A stretch of 5,156 nt of DNA from the IMG/VR virus record IMGVR_UViG_2693429634_000002, positions 1 through 5,156 of that record; one strand, 5' to 3'. The position numbers and the translations under genes are program-made. Below, in pieces: positions 1 through 5,156 of the stretch; positions within the stretch are counted from its first letter, which is position 1, and each line of letters begins with the position of its first letter. Source of the stretch: a virus. Taxonomy: Duplodnaviria > Heunggongvirae > Uroviricota > Caudoviricetes. The notes under the pieces are model-generated. The model was not told where the DNA came from and did not search any database. It saw nothing but the letters and a program-made list of their open reading frames with translations.

Positions 1-72
1 TAAGAGACCAGGCGGGGGAGAAATCCCTCGCCACCGCTGATGTGTCAGGCATCCTCAACGCACCCGCACTTA

Positions 73-99
73 ACCCGCTTCGGCGGGTTTTGTTTTTTC
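73..99 (+). terminator. Rho-independent terminator (stem ACCCGC / tetraloop TTCG / GCGGGT, then T-rich tail TTTGTTTTTTC)
   Basis: Perfect 6-bp GC-rich inverted repeat at 73-78/83-88 with a TTCG loop, followed directly by a T-rich run. It lies downstream of a TAA at 1-3 that may end an upstream gene. Confidence 0.5.
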
Positions 100-170
100 T
101 GGTCGTTCTGGTTTACAATCCATCCGTCAGCCTGAACAACTGGCACCTGCTGCGCCAGCAGAGAAAACAG

Positions 171-449
171 ATGGCGCACGATACCAAATTTTACAATTCG
201 GATAACTCTGCCGCCCCTGCCAGCAGGCACGGGCGGCGTTCTCATGCATTCAAATCTGACTGGTATCAGCACGACCCCTGCACCGAAGAACAGGCTGAAT
301 GGCTGATTCAGTGTTACCGCAGGCGCGGATACGAGATTAAGAAAGCCCTCAGCCTCGACTACCGTCACTGGATAATCTCCGTCAGGCTTCCTTACTCCGA
401 ACGGCCACCGCGTCCGTCCCGCACATTCCAGCAACGCATCTGGAGGTAA
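171..449 (+). CDS. Small hypothetical phage protein (nin-region), 92 aa, basic and Arg-rich
   Basis: The ORF track extends this frame back to GTG 42, but that extension would translate through the terminator hairpin and T-tract at 73-99. ATG 171 follows the terminator; its Shine-Dalgarno is weak (AGAGAAAACAG). The stop TAA 447-449 sits inside the GGAGG-TAAC-GTG junction with the next gene, suggesting translational coupling. Product identity not recognised. Confidence 0.45.
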   Translation: MAHDTKFYNSDNSAAPASRHGRRSHAFKSDWYQHDPCTEEQAEWLIQCYRRRGYEIKKALSLDYRHWIISVRLPYSERPPRPSRTFQQRIWR

Positions 450-450
450 C

Positions 451-1506
451 GTGCGGGTATTACTTCGACCTGTTCTGGTACCGGAACTCGGGCTGGTGAT
501 CGTTAAGCCGGGCCGTGAATCCATGCCGGTATTCCACAATACCCGGGTACTGGTGGAGCCGGAACCGAAAAGCATGCGTAATCTGCCGTCCGGGGTCGTT
601 CCTGCCGTTCGCCAGCCGCTGGCGGAGGATAAATCATTACTGCCATTTTTCAGCGACGAACGAGTGATTCGTGCTGCTGGTGGCGCTGGCGCATTGTCTG
701 ACTGGTTACTGCGCCATGTTAAATCCTGCCAGTGGCCACACGGCGATTATCACCACAGTGAAACCGTCATTCACCGTTATGGTACCGGCGCAATGGTGTT
801 GTGCTGGCACTGCGACAACCAGTTGCGTGACCAGACCTCCGAATCACTTGAGCAACTTGCTCACCGAAACTTGTCAGCATGGATGATTGACGTCATTCGT
901 CACGCAATGAATGGCACACAGGAGCGTGAATTATCGCTGGCTGAATTATCCTGGTGGGCGGCCTGCAATCAGGTGGTGGATGCACTACCTGAGGCAGTAG
1001 CGCGTCGTTCGCTGGGATTACCAGCGGAAAAAATCCGCTCCGTATACCGTGAGAGTGACATCGTACCGGGAGAACAGACAGCCACCAGCATACTGAAGCA
1101 GCGCACAAAAAATCTTGCGCCGCTGCCTCACGCCCACCAGCAAAACCCGCCACAGGAAAAGACGGTGGTCAGCATTGCCGTTGATCCGGAGTCACCGGCT
1201 CAGTATCTCCAGCGCCAGAAATCACAACGGGAAGAGATGCCTGTATACACGCGCTGGGTAAAAACGCAGAAATGCATGACGTGTGGCAATCAGGCAGATG
1301 ATCCGCATCACATCATTGGTCATGGACTGGGAGGGATGGGAACAAAGGCTGATGATTTGTTTGTTATTCCGCTGTGCCGTAAATGCCATAACGAACTGCA
1401 CGCCGGGGTAAAAGATTTTGAAGAAAAACACGGCAGCCAGCTGTTGTTGCTGATTCGTTTTTTAATGCACGCGAGAAATTCGGGTGTCCTGAAGTGGAAA
1501 GCATGA
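451..1506 (+). CDS. DUF968-like prophage protein (YdfU-like) with C-terminal HNH-like Cys/His cluster; putative nuclease or recombination accessory protein
   Basis: 351-aa ORF starting at GTG 451, preceded by GGAGG (442-446) with a 4-nt spacer. C-terminus carries C-x2-C...HH...C-x2-C-H-x3-H (CMTCGNQADDPHHIIGHG...CRKCHNELH). A second Cys/His cluster lies near residue 95 (CQWPHGDYHH...CWHCDNQ). Stop TGA 1504-1506 directly abuts the rusA ATG at 1507. Family assignment is from memory of DUF968/YdfU proteins of similar size and context, not from a search. Confidence 0.7.
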   Translation: MRVLLRPVLVPELGLVIVKPGRESMPVFHNTRVLVEPEPKSMRNLPSGVVPAVRQPLAEDKSLLPFFSDERVIRAAGGAGALSDWLLRHVKSCQWPHGDYHHSETVIHRYGTGAMVLCWHCDNQLRDQTSESLEQLAHRNLSAWMIDVIRHAMNGTQERELSLAELSWWAACNQVVDALPEAVARRSLGLPAEKIRSVYRESDIVPGEQTATSILKQRTKNLAPLPHAHQQNPPQEKTVVSIAVDPESPAQYLQRQKSQREEMPVYTRWVKTQKCMTCGNQADDPHHIIGHGLGGMGTKADDLFVIPLCRKCHNELHAGVKDFEEKHGSQLLLLIRFLMHARNSGVLKWKA

Positions 1507-1872
1507 ATGACTGAACGCATAGAATTTGTTTTGCCTTACCCGCCGACGGTGAACACCTACTGGCGACGTCGTGGCAGCACATATTTTGTGTCAAAAGCCG
1601 GTGAGCGTTATCGCCGGGATGTGGCACTTATTGTTCGCCAGCAGCGGCTGAAATTAAACCTGTCCGGAAGGCTGGCGATAAAGATTATTGCAGAGCCACC
1701 GGATAAGCGCCGCCGCGACCTGGACAATATCCTGAAGGCACCACTGGATGCGCTTACGCATGCCGGACTACTTATAGACGACGAGCAGTTTGATGAAATC
1801 AATATTGTGCGCGGTCAGCTCGTTTCTGGTGGGCGGCTGGGCGTGAAGATTTACAAAATTGAAAGTGAGTGA
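1507..1872 (+). CDS. rusA: Crossover junction endodeoxyribonuclease RusA (Holliday junction resolvase)
   Basis: 121-aa product MTERIEFVLPYPPTVNTYWRRRG...PPDKRRRDLDNILKAPLDALTHAGLLIDDEQ... matches the RusA hallmark (RRRDLDN acidic catalytic region, about 120 aa) and the typical position just upstream of Q in lambdoid phages. Confidence 0.9.
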   Translation: MTERIEFVLPYPPTVNTYWRRRGSTYFVSKAGERYRRDVALIVRQQRLKLNLSGRLAIKIIAEPPDKRRRDLDNILKAPLDALTHAGLLIDDEQFDEINIVRGQLVSGGRLGVKIYKIESE

Positions 1873-2435
1873 GCATAAATATGATATACCCGGAAATTAC
1901 AGGCAAAAGCGGTGAGCATTTACGCCTGAAAACGCTGGAAAGTGTCTGGATCCAGGGGAAACTGCGTATGTGGGGGCGTTGGTCGTATATTGGCGACGGT
2001 AAGACGGGAAATATGTTCAACCAATTACTGACCTCTAAAAAGCTGACAAAAACGGCAATTAACGAGGCGCTCCGGAGGATGAAAAAAGCGGGTCTGGACA
2101 AACCTGAACTTGAGGCTTTTTTGCGGGATATGATCAACGGCAATCAAAAAAGCTGGCTGGCACATTGTACCGATTCAGAGGCGTTAATAATCGACAGGGT
2201 TATTGGTGAAGTACTGGCAGGTTATCCCGGGCTGCTCAATGTTCTGAGTCAGCGTTATGTGGGGCGGGGGATGACTAAGCGCAAAATGGCTGAACTGCTG
2301 AATGATGCACATCCGGAATGGAGTTTAAGAACCTGTGAAAGACGCATTGAGCATTGGCTAAAGGTGGCAGAATTTATTTTGTACAAACCAATGGTTATGG
2401 CTTTTGGTATAGAGAAAAAAGTTATTGCTTTTTGA
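1869..2435 (+). CDS. Late-gene antitermination protein Q, phage-82/QuuD-like family (no lambda-Q zinc finger)
   Basis: 188-aa ORF whose GTG 1869 overlaps the rusA stop (GTGA); ATG 1881 is an alternative start. Contains an LRMWGRW...LLTSKKLTK segment resembling the ERWGAW...LITSK motif I recall from Q82/QuuD-type proteins. Sits immediately upstream of a promoter-like element and a strong intrinsic terminator (the PR'/tR' arrangement). No CxxC zinc-finger pairs as in lambda Q. Confidence 0.65.
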   Translation: MSINMIYPEITGKSGEHLRLKTLESVWIQGKLRMWGRWSYIGDGKTGNMFNQLLTSKKLTKTAINEALRRMKKAGLDKPELEAFLRDMINGNQKSWLAHCTDSEALIIDRVIGEVLAGYPGLLNVLSQRYVGRGMTKRKMAELLNDAHPEWSLRTCERRIEHWLKVAEFILYKPMVMAFGIEKKVIAF

Positions 2436-2462
2436 CGTAAAAACTGCTTCAATTCCGATAAG
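2425..2462 (+). promoter_or_regulatory. Candidate late promoter PR' and Q-utilisation region
   Basis: TTGACG (2432-2437) overlaps the Q stop codon. The -10 is ambiguous: CGATAA or GATAAG 18-19 bp downstream, or TTGCTT(2425)-N17-TTCAAT(2448). Position between Q and the terminator at 2514-2537 matches the lambdoid PR'-qut-tR' layout. Exact hexamers are uncertain. Confidence 0.3.
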
Positions 2463-2513
2463 CTTTCGCAAAGCTGTACCGCGAGGCGAATAGCAGACAT
2501 GGACATTTGAAAG

Positions 2514-2537
2514 AGCCCGCTTTTTGCGGGTTTTTTT
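2514..2537 (+). terminator. Rho-independent terminator, tR'-like (stem CCCGC / loop TTTTT / GCGGG, then T7)
   Basis: AGCCCGC-TTTTT-GCGGG followed by TTTTTTT at 2531-2537, about 80 bp downstream of the Q stop. This is the expected site of the terminator that Q-modified RNA polymerase reads through. Confidence 0.7.
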
Positions 2538-2648
2538 ATGACTGAAAAACGGCACGGGGCGTTAAACGCGCTGGTGGTTGCTAATACCGGTCTTTCAACT
2601 TGCTGGCTTTTTCGACAAGAGTTATTGGTATGTCACGTTAACCGGAAA

Positions 2649-2858
2649 ATGGAAAAAGACATGCTAAAACAGCAGGATATGACCGAAACCGCCAGAGTGG
2701 TGTTTAATGAATTAAGCGTCACCGAACCGGCGACCGCCGGGGAAATTGCGCAGAACACTTATCTTTCACGCGAACGCTGCCAGTTAATACTGACCCAGCT
2801 TGTTATGGCGGGTCTGGCAGATTATCAGTTCGGTTGTTACAGACGCCTTCCTCAGTGA
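2649..2858 (+). CDS. Small putative helix-turn-helix (winged-helix-like) DNA-binding protein, about 69 aa
   Basis: The ORF track gives 2538..2858, but ATG 2538 directly follows the terminator T-tract with no Shine-Dalgarno. Internal ATGs at 2649, 2661 and 2679 are more plausible starts. C-terminal segment TEPATAGEIAQNTYLSRERCQLILTQLVMAGL has an HTH-like pattern. Stop TGA 2856-2858 is embedded in its own terminator hairpin. The start is uncertain. Confidence 0.4.
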   Translation: MEKDMLKQQDMTETARVVFNELSVTEPATAGEIAQNTYLSRERCQLILTQLVMAGLADYQFGCYRRLPQ

Positions 2859-2868
2859 AGGCTTTTTT
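2845..2868 (+). terminator. Rho-independent terminator (GCCTTC / loop CTCAGT / GAAGGC, then TTTTTT)
   Basis: Perfect 6-bp inverted repeat 2845-2850/2857-2862 followed by T6 at 2863-2868. The loop/stem overlaps the stop codon of the small HTH ORF. Confidence 0.55.
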
Positions 2869-3008
2869 ATTTGTGGTAATGGGCGGCTGGTGGGTGTTAG
2901 CGGCACCTGCCAGCCATCTGCTCATGCGTTGGGGTCACAAGCAAACCTCAGGCCCATCTGCTTTGCGCAAAAGCGGTATGAGCCTATCAGAGAAGTGCTT
3001 ATTGATCT

Positions 3009-4067
3009 ATGGCTAATACTGTAAAAATATCCAGTTGTGAGTTAATCAACGCTGATTGCCTGGAATTTATCCAGACCTTACCGGAAAACTCTGTCGATCT
3101 GATAGTCACAGACCCGCCATACTTTAAAGTGAAGCCCGAGGGCTGGGATAACCAGTGGAAGGGCGACGATGATTACCTGAAGTGGCTGGACCAGTGTCTG
3201 GCGCAGTTCTGGCGGGTGCTGAAACCTGCCGGAAGTCTTTACCTGTTCTGTGGCCATCGCCTGGCATCTGACATTGAAATCATGATGCGTGAACGCTTCA
3301 ATGTGCTGAACCATATTATCTGGGCGAAGCCGTCCGGACGCTGGAACGGGTGCAACAAGGAAAGCCTGCGGGCGTATTTTCCGGCCACAGAACGCATTCT
3401 GTTCGCGGAACATTATCAGGGGCCGTATCGTCCGAAAGATGATGGCGATGAGGCGAAGGGCAGGGCACTGAAACAGCATGTGATGGCCCCGCTGATTTCT
3501 TACTTTCGTGATGCGCGTGCTGCTCTTGGGATAACGGCAAAACAGATTGCAGATGCCACAGGAAAGAAAAACATGGTGTCGCACTGGTTCAGTGCCAGTC
3601 AGTGGCAGCTACCGAACGAAAGCGATTATCTGAAATTACAGTCGCTGTTTGCCCGGGTGGCAGAAGAGAAACATCAGCGGGGAGAACTGGAAAAGTCCCA
3701 TTACCAACTGGTCAGCACATACAGTGAGCTGAACCGGCAGTATATGGAACTGCTGAGTGAATATAAGCATCTGCGGCGGTATTTTGGCGTGACGGTGCAG
3801 GTGCCGTATACCGATGTGTGGACGCATAAACCGGTGCAGTTCTATCCCGGGAAACATCCGTGCGAAAAACCGGCAGAAATGCTGCAGCAGATAATCAGCG
3901 CTAGCAGTCGTCCGGGTGACCTGATTGCAGATTTTTTCATGGGGTCGGGTTCGACAGTGAAAGCGGCACTGGCGCTCGGGCGTCGTGCAATTGGCGTTGA
4001 GCTGGAGACTGAACGTTTTGAGCAGACGGTTCGGGAAGTACAGGATTTAGTCAGCCAGAACGGATGA
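3009..4067 (+). CDS. DNA methyltransferase, beta-class amino-MTase (probable N6-adenine; N4-cytosine not excluded), apparently orphan
   Basis: 352-aa ORF. Motif IV DPPY (LIVTDPPYF) near the N-terminus is followed by LKPAGSLYLFCG. The C-terminal AdoMet motif is HPCEKPAEMLQQIISASSRPGDLIADFFMGSGSTVKAA. Motif order IV then I indicates the beta permutation. A roughly 150-aa insert between the motifs is a likely target-recognition region. No restriction endonuclease ORF is adjacent in this window. Confidence 0.9.
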   Translation: MANTVKISSCELINADCLEFIQTLPENSVDLIVTDPPYFKVKPEGWDNQWKGDDDYLKWLDQCLAQFWRVLKPAGSLYLFCGHRLASDIEIMMRERFNVLNHIIWAKPSGRWNGCNKESLRAYFPATERILFAEHYQGPYRPKDDGDEAKGRALKQHVMAPLISYFRDARAALGITAKQIADATGKKNMVSHWFSASQWQLPNESDYLKLQSLFARVAEEKHQRGELEKSHYQLVSTYSELNRQYMELLSEYKHLRRYFGVTVQVPYTDVWTHKPVQFYPGKHPCEKPAEMLQQIISASSRPGDLIADFFMGSGSTVKAALALGRRAIGVELETERFEQTVREVQDLVSQNG

Positions 4068-4069
4068 TA

Positions 4070-4098
4070 TTGAAGAATTAATTACGCGTCGTTATTAT
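4070..4098 (+). promoter_or_regulatory. Candidate sigma70 promoter for the tRNA cluster (TTGAAG-N17-TATTAT) with GC-rich discriminator
   Basis: -35-like TTGAAG at 4070-4075, 17-bp spacer, -10-like TATTAT at 4093-4098, then GC-rich GCGGCTCCC before the tRNA 5' end at 4108, resembling stable-RNA promoter discriminators. Overlaps the methyltransferase stop codon. Sequence-pattern only. Confidence 0.3.
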
Positions 4099-4107
4099 GC
4101 GGCTCCC

Positions 4108-4183
4108 GGCCCTTTAGCTCAGTGGTGAGAGCGAGCGACTCATAATCGCCAGGTCGCTGGTTCAAATCCAGCAAGGGCCACCA
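4108..4183 (+). tRNA. ileZ: tRNA-Ile2 (anticodon CAU, presumably lysidine-modified to read AUA); ileZ-like
   Basis: Manual cloverleaf: acceptor GGCCCTT/AAGGGCC, U8, D-stem GCTC/GAGC, anticodon loop CTCATAA (CAT), T-arm GCTGG-TTCAAAT-CCAGC, discriminator A, encoded CCA. Overall sequence is close to what I recall of E. coli ileX rather than elongator tRNA-Met. Ile versus Met cannot be proven from sequence alone. Confidence 0.85.
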
Positions 4184-4190
4184 TCACATA

Positions 4191-4267
4191 CCGCCATTAG
4201 CTCATCGGGATAGAGCGCCAGCCTTCGAAGCTGGTTGCGCGGGGTTCAAGTCCCCGATGGCGGTCCA
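4191..4267 (+). tRNA. argN: tRNA-Arg (anticodon UCG, reads CGA/CGG); argN-like
   Basis: Manual cloverleaf: acceptor CCGCCAT/ATGGCGG (C1:G72), U8, D-stem GCTC/GAGC with GG in the D-loop, anticodon stem CCAGC/GCTGG, loop CTTCGAA (TCG), T-arm CGGGG-TTCAAGT-CCCCG, discriminator U, encoded CCA. Lies 7 nt after the preceding tRNA. Confidence 0.8.
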
Positions 4268-4280
4268 TTATCTGCATCAT

Positions 4281-4357
4281 GCGTTGTTAGCTCAGCCGGA
4301 CAGAGCAATTGCCTTCTAAGCAATCGGTCACTGGTTCGAATCCAGTACAACGCGCCA
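4281..4357 (+). tRNA. argO: tRNA-Arg (anticodon UCU, reads AGA/AGG); argO-like
   Basis: Manual cloverleaf: acceptor GCGTTGT/ACAACGC, U8 A9, D-stem GCTC/GAGC, anticodon stem ATTGC/GCAAT, loop CTTCTAA (TCT), T-arm ACTGG-TTCGAAT-CCAGT, discriminator G, encoded CCA. Lies 13 nt after the previous tRNA. Confidence 0.85.
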
Positions 4358-4372
4358 CACTTATTTTCCCTG

Positions 4373-4396
4373 GCTCGCTTTTGCGGGCTTTTTTTT
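4373..4396 (+). terminator. Rho-independent terminator after the tRNA cluster (GCTCGC / loop TTTT / GCGGGC, then T8)
   Basis: 6-bp stem with one G-U pair and a TTTT loop, followed by TTTTTTTT at 4389-4396, about 15 nt after the last tRNA CCA. Confidence 0.6.
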
Positions 4397-4593
4397 AAAT
4401 GTCTCACAATTCAGGCGGTTGACTGTTGTCTGGTTTGCGGGGAGTTTGTTAAAAGAAACTGGCATGGTGAATCCCCCTGTGCGGAGGGGCAATCAGCGAG
4501 TAGGTATATGGGATAATCGCGGATTCAGGTGCTGGTACTGAATTCACCGGGAGGCACCCGGCACCATGCAATGGCACATAGCGCCACTCTCCA

Positions 4594-4621
4594 GCCCCTC
4601 TCCGGAGGGGCTTTCTTATGG
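4594..4621 (+). terminator. Terminator-like hairpin (GCCCCTC / loop TCCG / GAGGGGC, then TTTCTTAT)
   Basis: Perfect 7-bp GC stem 4594-4600/4605-4611 with a 4-nt loop and a moderately U-rich tail. No coding gene precedes it, so it may belong to a small RNA or to a convergent terminator pair. Confidence 0.35.
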
Positions 4622-4623
4622 AC

Positions 4624-4652
4624 AAAAAAAGCCCGCGCAGGGAGACGCGGGC
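4624..4652 (-). terminator. Terminator-like hairpin on the minus strand (A7 on + is U7 on -, adjacent to GCCCGCG / 8-nt loop / CGCGGGC)
   Basis: 7-bp perfect GC stem 4631-4637/4646-4652 immediately 3' of the A-tract 4624-4630 on the + strand. Read on the minus strand this is a stem followed by a U7 tract. No convincing minus-strand gene is seen to its right in this window. Confidence 0.3.
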
Positions 4653-4845
4653 GGCAAGGAATAAACAACAAAACGTGAAGTAATATTTCAGCTGGCGAAT
4701 AATATCCGACAGTAATCACTCTGCGCAATAGCGCGGCCTTTTTCGTATTGCGGGCTGTTGTCTCTCTTCTGCCATTGTCCTGTAACTTCCGGACTTCAGC
4801 CCGCTCCTCATTTTACTCACAATATTATCCCGGCCGGGAGGATTC

Positions 4846-5156
4846 ATGGCATTTAAACACTATGATGTTGTCAGGGCGGCGTCGCCGTCAGACCTTGCGG
4901 AAAAGCTGACACACAAACTGAAAGAGGGCTGGCAGCCGTTTGGTAGTCCGGTGGCCATAACCCCTTATACCCTGATGCAGGCGATTGCAGCAGAAGGTGA
5001 TGTGGTGGTCAGTGGTGCAACTGAGCCGGATTGGTACTACGTCATCGTACTGGCCGGGCAGTCCAATGCTATGGCTTACGGTGAAGGGCTTCCGCTGCCG
5101 GATTCATACGATGCTCCGGATCCGCGCATTAAACAGCTGGCGCGCCGCAGTACAGT
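4846..5156 (+). CDS. Prophage sialate O-acetylesterase NanS-p-like protein (DUF1737 N-terminus plus start of SASA/SGNH domain); 5' portion only, runs off the window
   Basis: ATG 4846 preceded by GGGAGGA (4836-4842). Open to the window end, so absent from the complete-ORF track. Translation MAFKHYDVVRAASPSDLAEKL...DWYYVIVLAGQSNAMAYGEG shows the GQSN block-I motif of SASA-type esterases. Matches the gene found downstream of stx in Stx phages as I recall it. Confidence 0.7.
   Translation, partial: MAFKHYDVVRAASPSDLAEKLTHKLKEGWQPFGSPVAITPYTLMQAIAAEGDVVVSGATEPDWYYVIVLAGQSNAMAYGEGLPLPDSYDAPDPRIKQLARRST

Follow-up and report, generated by a model that had tools for sequence, protein, structure and literature searches.

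An unoccupied cargo site in a lambdoid Escherichia coli prophage with a predicted convergent pair of Hfq-binding small RNAs

Organization of the late region

The DNA considered here, hereinafter the window, is a stretch of 5,156 nucleotides (positions 1 to 5,156 of the IMG/VR virus record IMGVR_UViG_2693429634_000002), and represents the late-regulatory region of a lambdoid E. coli prophage. Up to and including its tRNA genes it contains the following features:

451-1506, plus strand: DUF968 gene (context)
1507-1872, plus strand: rusA (context)
1869-2435, plus strand: Q-type late antiterminator gene (Pfam DUF1133, 349 bits; Phage_antitermQ, 33 bits)
about 2515-2540, plus strand: terminator, putative PR'/tR' region 3' of the Q gene
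between the Q and methylase genes, plus strand: 106-aa ORF
3009-4067, plus strand: DNA methyltransferase gene (Pfam N6_N4_Mtase, 151 bits)
4108-4357, plus strand: tRNA cluster of the ileZ (CAU)/argN (UCG)/argO (UCU) type (ARAGORN; Rfam tRNA, 59-72 bits; annotations of 933W and Sakai)
4108-4183, plus strand: tRNA with anticodon CAT (CAU) (ARAGORN, Rfam)
4191-4267, plus strand: tRNA-Arg TCG (UCG) (ARAGORN, Rfam)
4281-4357, plus strand: tRNA-Arg TCT (UCU) (ARAGORN, Rfam)

The initial annotation had proposed that Q, the tRNAs and an esterase gene follow one another in this order. The order itself was recovered, but the proposal had passed over the 106-aa ORF and the methylase gene, which separate Q from the tRNAs in the window and likewise in some Stx2a phages. 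The phage Stx2_14040 has the same methylase gene upstream of its tRNAs, and the gene order at Q in an O55:H7 prophage (L004) matches that of the window. The CAU tRNA is labelled Met by ARAGORN, whereas in 933W (ileZ, AUA codon) and by PGAP it is annotated as tRNA-Ile. Two weak isrK-like Rfam matches were also observed on the plus strand, against a gathering score of 50: one at 12-93 (27.2 bits), which lies 3' of a hok/sok-type region in the closest genome, and another at 2462-2536 (18.7 bits), which occupies the PR'-tR' position immediately 3' of the Q-type gene, corresponding to the source of the StxS sRNA in Stx phages.

The tRNA-to-esterase spacer

The end of argO and the ATG of the esterase gene at 4846 delimit a spacer of 488 bp (4358-4845). 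The features in and around it are:

4372-4396, plus strand: intrinsic terminator 3' of the tRNA cluster (stem 4372-4389, T-run 4389-4396), which borders the cargo slot on the left
4392-4404, no strand assigned: empty cargo junction (alignments to Stx2 phages, blastn breakpoints, junction listings)
4395-4400, plus strand: putative -10 hexamer TTAAAT of the plus-strand sRNA, suggested by its conserved position
4406-4620, plus strand: predicted Hfq-binding sRNA gene, STnc100 family, EcOnc05 allele (Rfam match, probe, Sp4 identity; 5' end probably near 4400-4407)
4593-4620, plus strand: terminator of the plus-strand sRNA, a hairpin with a U-rich tail (corresponds to the terminal helix in the Rfam model)
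4624-4652, minus strand: intrinsic terminator of the minus-strand RNA (stem 4652-4631 of 8 pairs, 7 of them G-C; T7 run 4630-4624)
4624-4894, minus strand: predicted Hfq-binding RNA, EcOnc08/21/42 allele (probe match; Sp4 peaks over 4626-4789; 5' end between ~4817 and 4894)
4721-4745, plus strand: terminator-like hairpin with a CCTTTTTCG tail, conserved with 933W
4836-5156, plus strand: Shine-Dalgarno GGGAGG (4836-4841) and 5' part of a nanS-p-type sialate O-acetylesterase gene (ATG 4846), which runs off the window

All ORFs of the spacer are of 67 aa or less and the five largest have no Pfam match at E<=1, in agreement with the earlier view that no credible ORF follows the three tRNAs. That view had also placed here a terminator, several hairpins and a convergent hairpin pair, and terminator-like sites indeed exceed the shuffled expectation well, with five listed in 4000-5156 against 1.1 +/- 1.2 in shuffles. 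They lie at 4372-4389 (plus, with a T8 run), 4593-4612 (plus), 4652-4631 (minus, with the T7 run) and 4721-4736 (plus), the hairpin at 4593-4612 being listed twice, as the fifth site is its inner stem (4597-4610). The convergent pair corresponds to 4593-4612 and 4652-4631.

The terminator after the tRNA cluster is conserved up to the end of its T-run in 933W and at two other loci (L003 and L012), and the 933W annotation marks it as a terminator upstream of stx. The hairpin at 4721-4745 opens a block (4721-4953) with 90.6% identity to 933W, which spans the nanS-p leader and first 36 codons and is conserved although the sequences on both of its sides have diverged or been replaced.

The esterase gene is seen for 103 codons only, up to the window end. 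The N-terminus that these encode matches Pfam DUF1737 (60.7 bits) and shows 58% identity (E 9e-44) to the N-terminus of L0105/NanS-p of 933W, including the GQSN motif at the start of the esterase domain. L0105 is the characterised NanS-p esterase z1466, and in near-identical genomes the window gene is annotated as a SASA family carbohydrate esterase.

A plus-strand RNA of the STnc100 family

The spacer contains a match to the entire Rfam model RF02076 (STnc100) on the plus strand at 4433-4623 (138 bits, E 2e-31, model positions 1-206 of 206), well above the gathering score of 47 bits. As controls, the model recovered the copies 3' of stx2B in 933W (208 bits), 3' of stx1B in Sp15 (177 bits) and 3' of stx2B in Stx2_14040 (159 bits). 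We aligned 18 copies from six enterobacterial genera, namely Escherichia (coli, albertii and ruysiae), Shigella, Atlantibacter, Phytobacter, Enterobacter and Trabulsiella, and obtained an RNAalifold consensus comprised of a closing helix (GCAUGGUG/CACCAUGC), two invariant hairpins, a variable insert, an 8-bp hairpin and the terminator. Compensatory changes are found in 11 of the 34 predicted pairs and are concentrated in the 8-bp hairpin, where seven of the eight pairs keep pairing via two-sided changes; depending on the pair, these occur in 1 to 8 of the 18 sequences, and at five of the pairs in at least 5 sequences. A core of about 130 nt is almost invariant from Escherichia to Trabulsiella, and the minimum-energy fold of the single window sequence gives the same core. 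Folding energy relative to shuffles was not distinctive (z -1.57 for the plus-strand RNA and -0.47 for its minus-strand partner), and as neither value is significant it was left out of the evidence.

In every context examined, a -10-like hexamer (TTAAAT, TGTAAT or TATGTT) is located 2-5 nt upstream of the conserved TCACAATTCAG, and we infer that it is the promoter element of the plus-strand sRNA. A start about 7 nt 3' of this hexamer predicts an RNA of ~213 nt in the window and of ~230 nt in 933W, and the published Northern sizes of ~222 nt (window allele) and ~235/247 nt (933W) fit these lengths. Promoter scans of the locus returned no strong sigma-70 promoter for either the plus-strand or the minus-strand RNA; the plus-strand -10 is without a matching -35, and TTGACT at 4419-4424 was rejected as a -35 because it has no usable -10 downstream.

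A predicted convergent minus-strand RNA

The terminators of the minus- and plus-strand RNAs stand back to back, with a gap of ~4-7 nt. At its other end the minus-strand RNA could begin at one of several points: promoter-like sites predict starts at ~4817, ~4844 and ~4855, that is RNAs of 194-231 nt rather than ~271 nt, and the Northern size of ~271 nt implies a start at ~4894. The candidate -10 hexamers on this strand include GATAAT at 4829-4824 and TTAAAT at 4856-4851. All of these starts other than ~4817 would render the RNA antisense to the Shine-Dalgarno (4836-4841) and start codon of nanS-p, and an RNA of ~271 nt would be antisense to the nanS-p leader, the Shine-Dalgarno and the first ~16 codons.

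The position of this gene, convergent with an STnc100-type sRNA gene and between the cargo and the esterase gene, is that of AsxR in 933W. An identity with AsxR or AgvB (RF02703/RF02702) was nevertheless rejected, as 4358-4860 gave no Rfam match to them even at E<=10, with the AsxR model reaching 88 bits at the homologous place in 933W as a positive control, and as the hallmarks of these RNAs, a ~42-nt 3' region AGTATCTCATGC..TTGCCCGAACCCAYTCGGGC and a length of 51-60 nt, are absent. The minus-strand sequence (...TTATTCCTTGCCGCCCGCGTCTCCCTGCGCGGGCTTTTTTT) is unlike those of the published AsxR, AgvB and EcOnc03, and the published RNA that matches it is ~271 nt long. It also shares an 11-nt identity with Spot 42, which we take to be compatible with chance.

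Some prophages, those of ST131 type among them, have the anti-adapter gene iraM on the minus strand between the STnc100 and esterase genes. At one such locus (L011, 2564-2899, minus strand) iraM lies where window 4624-4845 has the minus-strand sRNA, and the homology breaks exactly at the esterase ATG.

Correspondence to the published RNAs of Sakai Sp4

Only one base, an extra C in the T-run of Sp4, distinguishes the spacer from its counterpart in prophage Sp4 of E. coli O157:H7 Sakai, where the locus lies at about 1179669-1180260 of NC_002695.2. Sp4 shares the order of the window, with ileZ1-argN1-argO1, a 489-bp spacer, ECs_1088 and no stx. It differs in the upstream module, where a CAAX protease and an AraC-family gene precede the tRNAs in place of the methylase gene of the window, and in the esterase coding sequence, which diverges after about codon 33.

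Convergent pairs of Hfq-binding sRNAs between a moron CDS and a conserved ORF were described in Sp3, 4, 5, 9, 10, 11, 15 and 17 (Tree et al. 2014, PMC4104026). Table S2 of that study lists EcOnc05 in Sp4 on the plus strand (~222 nt), and EcOnc08 and EcOnc21 in Sp4 on the minus strand (~271 nt), with the homologue EcOnc42 in Sp15; EcOnc05 and EcOnc08/21/42 were detected by both Hfq crosslinking and Northern blot. A review (PMC7873438) counts at least 8 Sakai prophages with such an sRNA dyad, flanked by the late promoter and the lysis genes. The toxin-free arrangement, both RNAs and the dyad layout can all be found in the literature (Tree et al. 2014; Sy et al. 2020; PMC7873438).

Since a direct use of the Table S2 coordinates placed the RNAs inconsistently, the mapping was settled by the probe sequences. 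The EcOnc05 probe is found exactly at 4491-4525 on the minus strand, and hence detects the plus-strand RNA, while the 35-nt EcOnc08/21/42 probe is found exactly at 4698-4732 on the plus strand, and hence detects the minus-strand RNA. The Hfq peaks of Sp4, when placed on the window, cover 4494-4602 (plus), 4626-4698 (minus) and 4704-4789 (minus). Expression and Hfq binding of both window RNAs are accordingly predictions, carried over from the Sakai strain with the identical sequence. The initial annotation had raised small RNAs as one possible content of the site, and both the Rfam match and the published RNAs of identical sequence point to two Hfq-bound sRNAs encoded in the spacer.

The Table S2 coordinates are ~137 bp lower than those of NC_002695.2 at Sp5 (1.27 Mb) and Sp15 (2.9 Mb), with no offset at Sp4 (1.18 Mb); left uncorrected, they put EcOnc42 on the nanS-p start. 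The location of EcOnc42 3' of stx1 and the PR'-tR' transcript of 258 nt (Sy et al. 2020) fit the offset of ~137. EcOnc15 was rejected as the Sp15 counterpart, being located upstream of stx1A and the same as StxS.

The cargo slot

The flanking frame of Stx-converting phages is present in the window in the form of Q, ileZ-argN-argO and the terminator, followed by the sRNA dyad and nanS-p. 933W and Sakai Sp5 have ileZ-argN-argO, the terminator, stx2A, stx2B, about 490 bp and L0105/nanS-p, in this order. The window has no stx homology, and the stxA/stxB genes between the PR'/tRNA region and nanS-p are absent. Homology to 933W and Stx2_14040 on the left extends through argO and the terminator and ends at ~4395, the end of the T-run; on the right it restarts at ~4400-4404, where the conserved TCACAATTCAG is located. 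The end of argO and TCACAATTCAG are 46 nt apart in the window as against 1376 nt in 933W. Taken together, these two breakpoints make stx2AB a flush insertion of 1335 bp relative to the window. In Stx1 phages such as Sp15 the right junction is common with the window, but there are no tRNAs.

Several expectations of the initial annotation are borne out by these comparisons. It had suspected the frame of an Stx phage devoid of the toxin, and the window has the same order of tRNAs, terminator and esterase as 933W and Sp5, minus stx; it had asked whether the breakpoints coincide with stx operon boundaries, and in the alignment to 933W and Stx2_14040 they are those of the stx2 cassette. It would have been abandoned had stx been located elsewhere or the downstream gene been unrelated; stx does sit between the tRNAs and the esterase gene in these phages, and the downstream gene is a nanS-p homologue. 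One reading needs revision: the structured spacer had been described as standing in place of stx, and while the interval is without toxin genes, it is no stand-in, for about 440 of its 488 bp are ordinary stxB-to-nanS-p intergenic DNA that is present in Stx phages too.

The further suggestion of a landing pad for other cargo also holds, as the same frame in other prophages accommodates terB+DUF3927, DUF3927 with a minus-strand iraM, or stx2. In terms of the slot itself, the occupants are stx2AB, terB+DUF3927, or DUF3927; L011, the DUF3927 example, lacks argO, and its left homology already stops at ~4369. The stx2 and terB+DUF3927 cassettes open with a common short motif, ATATCTGCGCC and GTATCCGCGCC respectively, directly after the T-run of the tRNA terminator (L005 2410-2421 and L012 1686-1697, just right of the equivalent of window 4396). 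This cassette-start motif, RTATCYGCGCC, is absent from the empty site of the window.

Distribution and relatives of the locus

Of 5426 complete E. coli genomes, at least 951 have window 4000-5156 as one contiguous stretch, and in 1253 genomes a single locus covers 80% or more of window 3009-5156. Variants with the same tRNAs and esterase carry terB+DUF3927, DUF3927 alone with a minus-strand iraM, tandem STnc100 duplicates, or stx2. This variety of cargo in a single tRNA/esterase frame indicates a modular cargo site, as Tree et al. also proposed.

Among the named relatives, the stx2 locus of 933W/Sp5 consists of argO, stx2AB, EcOnc27 (STnc100, sRNA103), AsxR and L0105 (nanS-p). It resembles the window in the tRNAs, the terminator, the sRNA family convergent with a minus-strand sRNA, and the esterase family, and differs in the presence of the 1335-bp stx2AB and in the minus-strand partner, which is the 54-nt anti-sRNA AsxR rather than the longer EcOnc08/21/42 type; the 5' and central parts of the 933W sRNA are ~71% identical to those of the window sRNA. 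The stx1 locus of Sp15/VT1-Sakai, which has EcOnc42 3' of the toxin (Sy et al. 2020), is 98.7% identical to the window from ~4540 to 4845, a stretch that contains the 3' half of the sRNA, both terminators and the minus-strand RNA. Unlike the window, it has no tRNA cluster, with stx1AB directly after PR'-tR', and the 5' half of its plus-strand sRNA is a different allele. The near-identity to Sp15 from ~4540 onward, combined with strong divergence 5' of this point, implies a crossover inside the invariant sRNA core, and hence mosaic sRNA alleles.

Phage Nil3 (AM051322), a lambdoid phage of bovine O157:H7, is 99.8% identical over window 4358-4799, and its tRNAs run straight into the same spacer; it differs in having tR' and the tRNAs directly after Q, with no methylase, and its record ends inside the spacer. 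The PasD sRNAs of EPEC E2348/69 are described as structurally related to STnc100 and often directly 5' of a prophage sialic-acid esterase gene, though too diverged from STnc100 for BLAST (Pas-sRNA preprint, 2026).

Interpretation of the locus and alternatives

In light of these observations, the late region of this lambdoid E. coli prophage very likely has, at 4358-4845, an unoccupied 'moron' (extra-cargo) site with essentially the sequence of Sp4 that encodes a convergent pair of Hfq-binding sRNAs. From left to right, its elements would be: 1) the terminator of the phage tRNA cluster; 2) abutting it, the STnc100 sRNA gene (allele EcOnc05, about 215-220 nt) with its own terminator, whose relatives EcOnc27/sRNA103 lie 3' of stx2B; 3) the convergent gene of the minus-strand Hfq-binding RNA (EcOnc08/21/42), the 5' part of which would run antisense through the nanS-p leader; and 4) the ribosome-binding site of nanS-p. 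In the lysogen, each of the two RNAs would have its own promoter, associate with Hfq and target other transcripts; the minus-strand RNA could in addition lower nanS-p expression in cis. After induction, Q-modified polymerase coming from PR' would ignore all the terminators and continue into nanS-p and the lysis genes. The toxin operon of Stx phages would have been inserted in the few bases between the tRNA terminator and the plus-strand sRNA gene.

An extension of this scheme, which we regard as doubtful, is that the minus-strand RNA serves in the lysogen as a cis-antisense repressor of nanS-p, perhaps of lysis read-through, and that in parallel the plus-strand core, with its -10 at the cargo junction, anchors the recombination that fixes where cargo lands. 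If true, it would explain why sRNA dyads always accompany the cargo site.

The back-to-back terminators, 4-7 nt apart, could alternatively serve as nothing but an insulator that blocks transcription in both directions between the tRNA unit and the late genes, with the RNAs as by-products devoid of a role in trans. The unremarkable folding energy of both RNAs is consistent with such an arrangement, as is the fact that the EcOnc05 and EcOnc08/21/42 alleles are without validated targets (PMC7873438). A terminator alone, however, needs neither a near-invariant plus-strand core of ~130 nt nor compensatory changes in one helix; furthermore, the published data show that both RNAs of the identical Sp4 sequence crosslink to Hfq, and activity is reported for relatives, with effects of sRNA103 overexpression on fimZ and espA and many RIL-seq partners of PasD. 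We consider the insulator unlikely.

A recent deletion derivative of an Stx phage that lost stxAB appears still less likely. Loss would be compatible with the flush junction, which has no extra bases, and with the homology of both flanks to Stx2 phages, and repeated chromosomal stx loss was raised as one possibility in the Pas-sRNA preprint. Against it, there is no stx remnant and no RTATCYGCGCC motif at the site, and over the 5' half of the sRNA the identity of the right flank to 933W and Stx2_14040 is no higher than ~71-74%, so that the window has not recently been derived from either phage. This empty allele also occurs in Sakai Sp4, Nil3 and the complete genomes counted above (at least 951). 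The observations fit an ancient loss, or a replacement through recombination with a toxin-free prophage, just as they fit a site that never acquired stx.

Hardly any credence can be given to a small protein-coding gene hidden in the spacer, for which a PGAP 'incomplete hypothetical protein' on the minus strand (equivalent to window ~4453-4578) and hypothetical proteins at the site in some phage records might speak, since the five largest ORFs lack Pfam matches, a full-length RNA family match covers the region, homologues differ by large indels in exactly the PGAP-annotated stretch, and PGAP itself flags the feature as a partial pseudogene.

On the preferred reading of an unoccupied cargo site, the window is one more copy of the toxin-free allele present in the reference O157:H7 genome, and adds no new element. 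Its interest lies in the site itself, which is where the Shiga toxin genes ride and where the adjoining sRNAs have been linked to virulence regulation and, via sequence variants, to clinical outcome. The modularity of the locus is cleanly displayed, the slot being a few bases wide between the tRNA terminator and the putative sRNA promoter, and two abundant Hfq-bound RNAs at the cargo site are without known targets (EcOnc42/21/08 in PMC7873438).

Other occurrences of STnc100

A scan with an 18-mer across one genome per species gave about the number of hits that chance predicts. STnc100 was present at 10 of the 19 loci, of which nine are enterobacterial and the tenth is an 888-bp contig of 'Xanthomonas pisi DSM 18956' (NZ_JPLE01000080.1, L031). 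The STnc100 and AsxR matches of this contig (394-653; 207.7 and 88.1 bits) have scores identical to those of 933W, and it is most likely a contamination of the assembly by E. coli O157 or Stx2-phage DNA. Tandem duplicates of STnc100, with two different alleles ~470-480 bp apart from start to start, were observed at three loci:

L013 (E. coli IHE3034): 1720-1910 and 2188-2397
L012 (another E. coli): 2476-2681 and 2959-3168
L019 (E. albertii): 4825-5013 and 5289-5482
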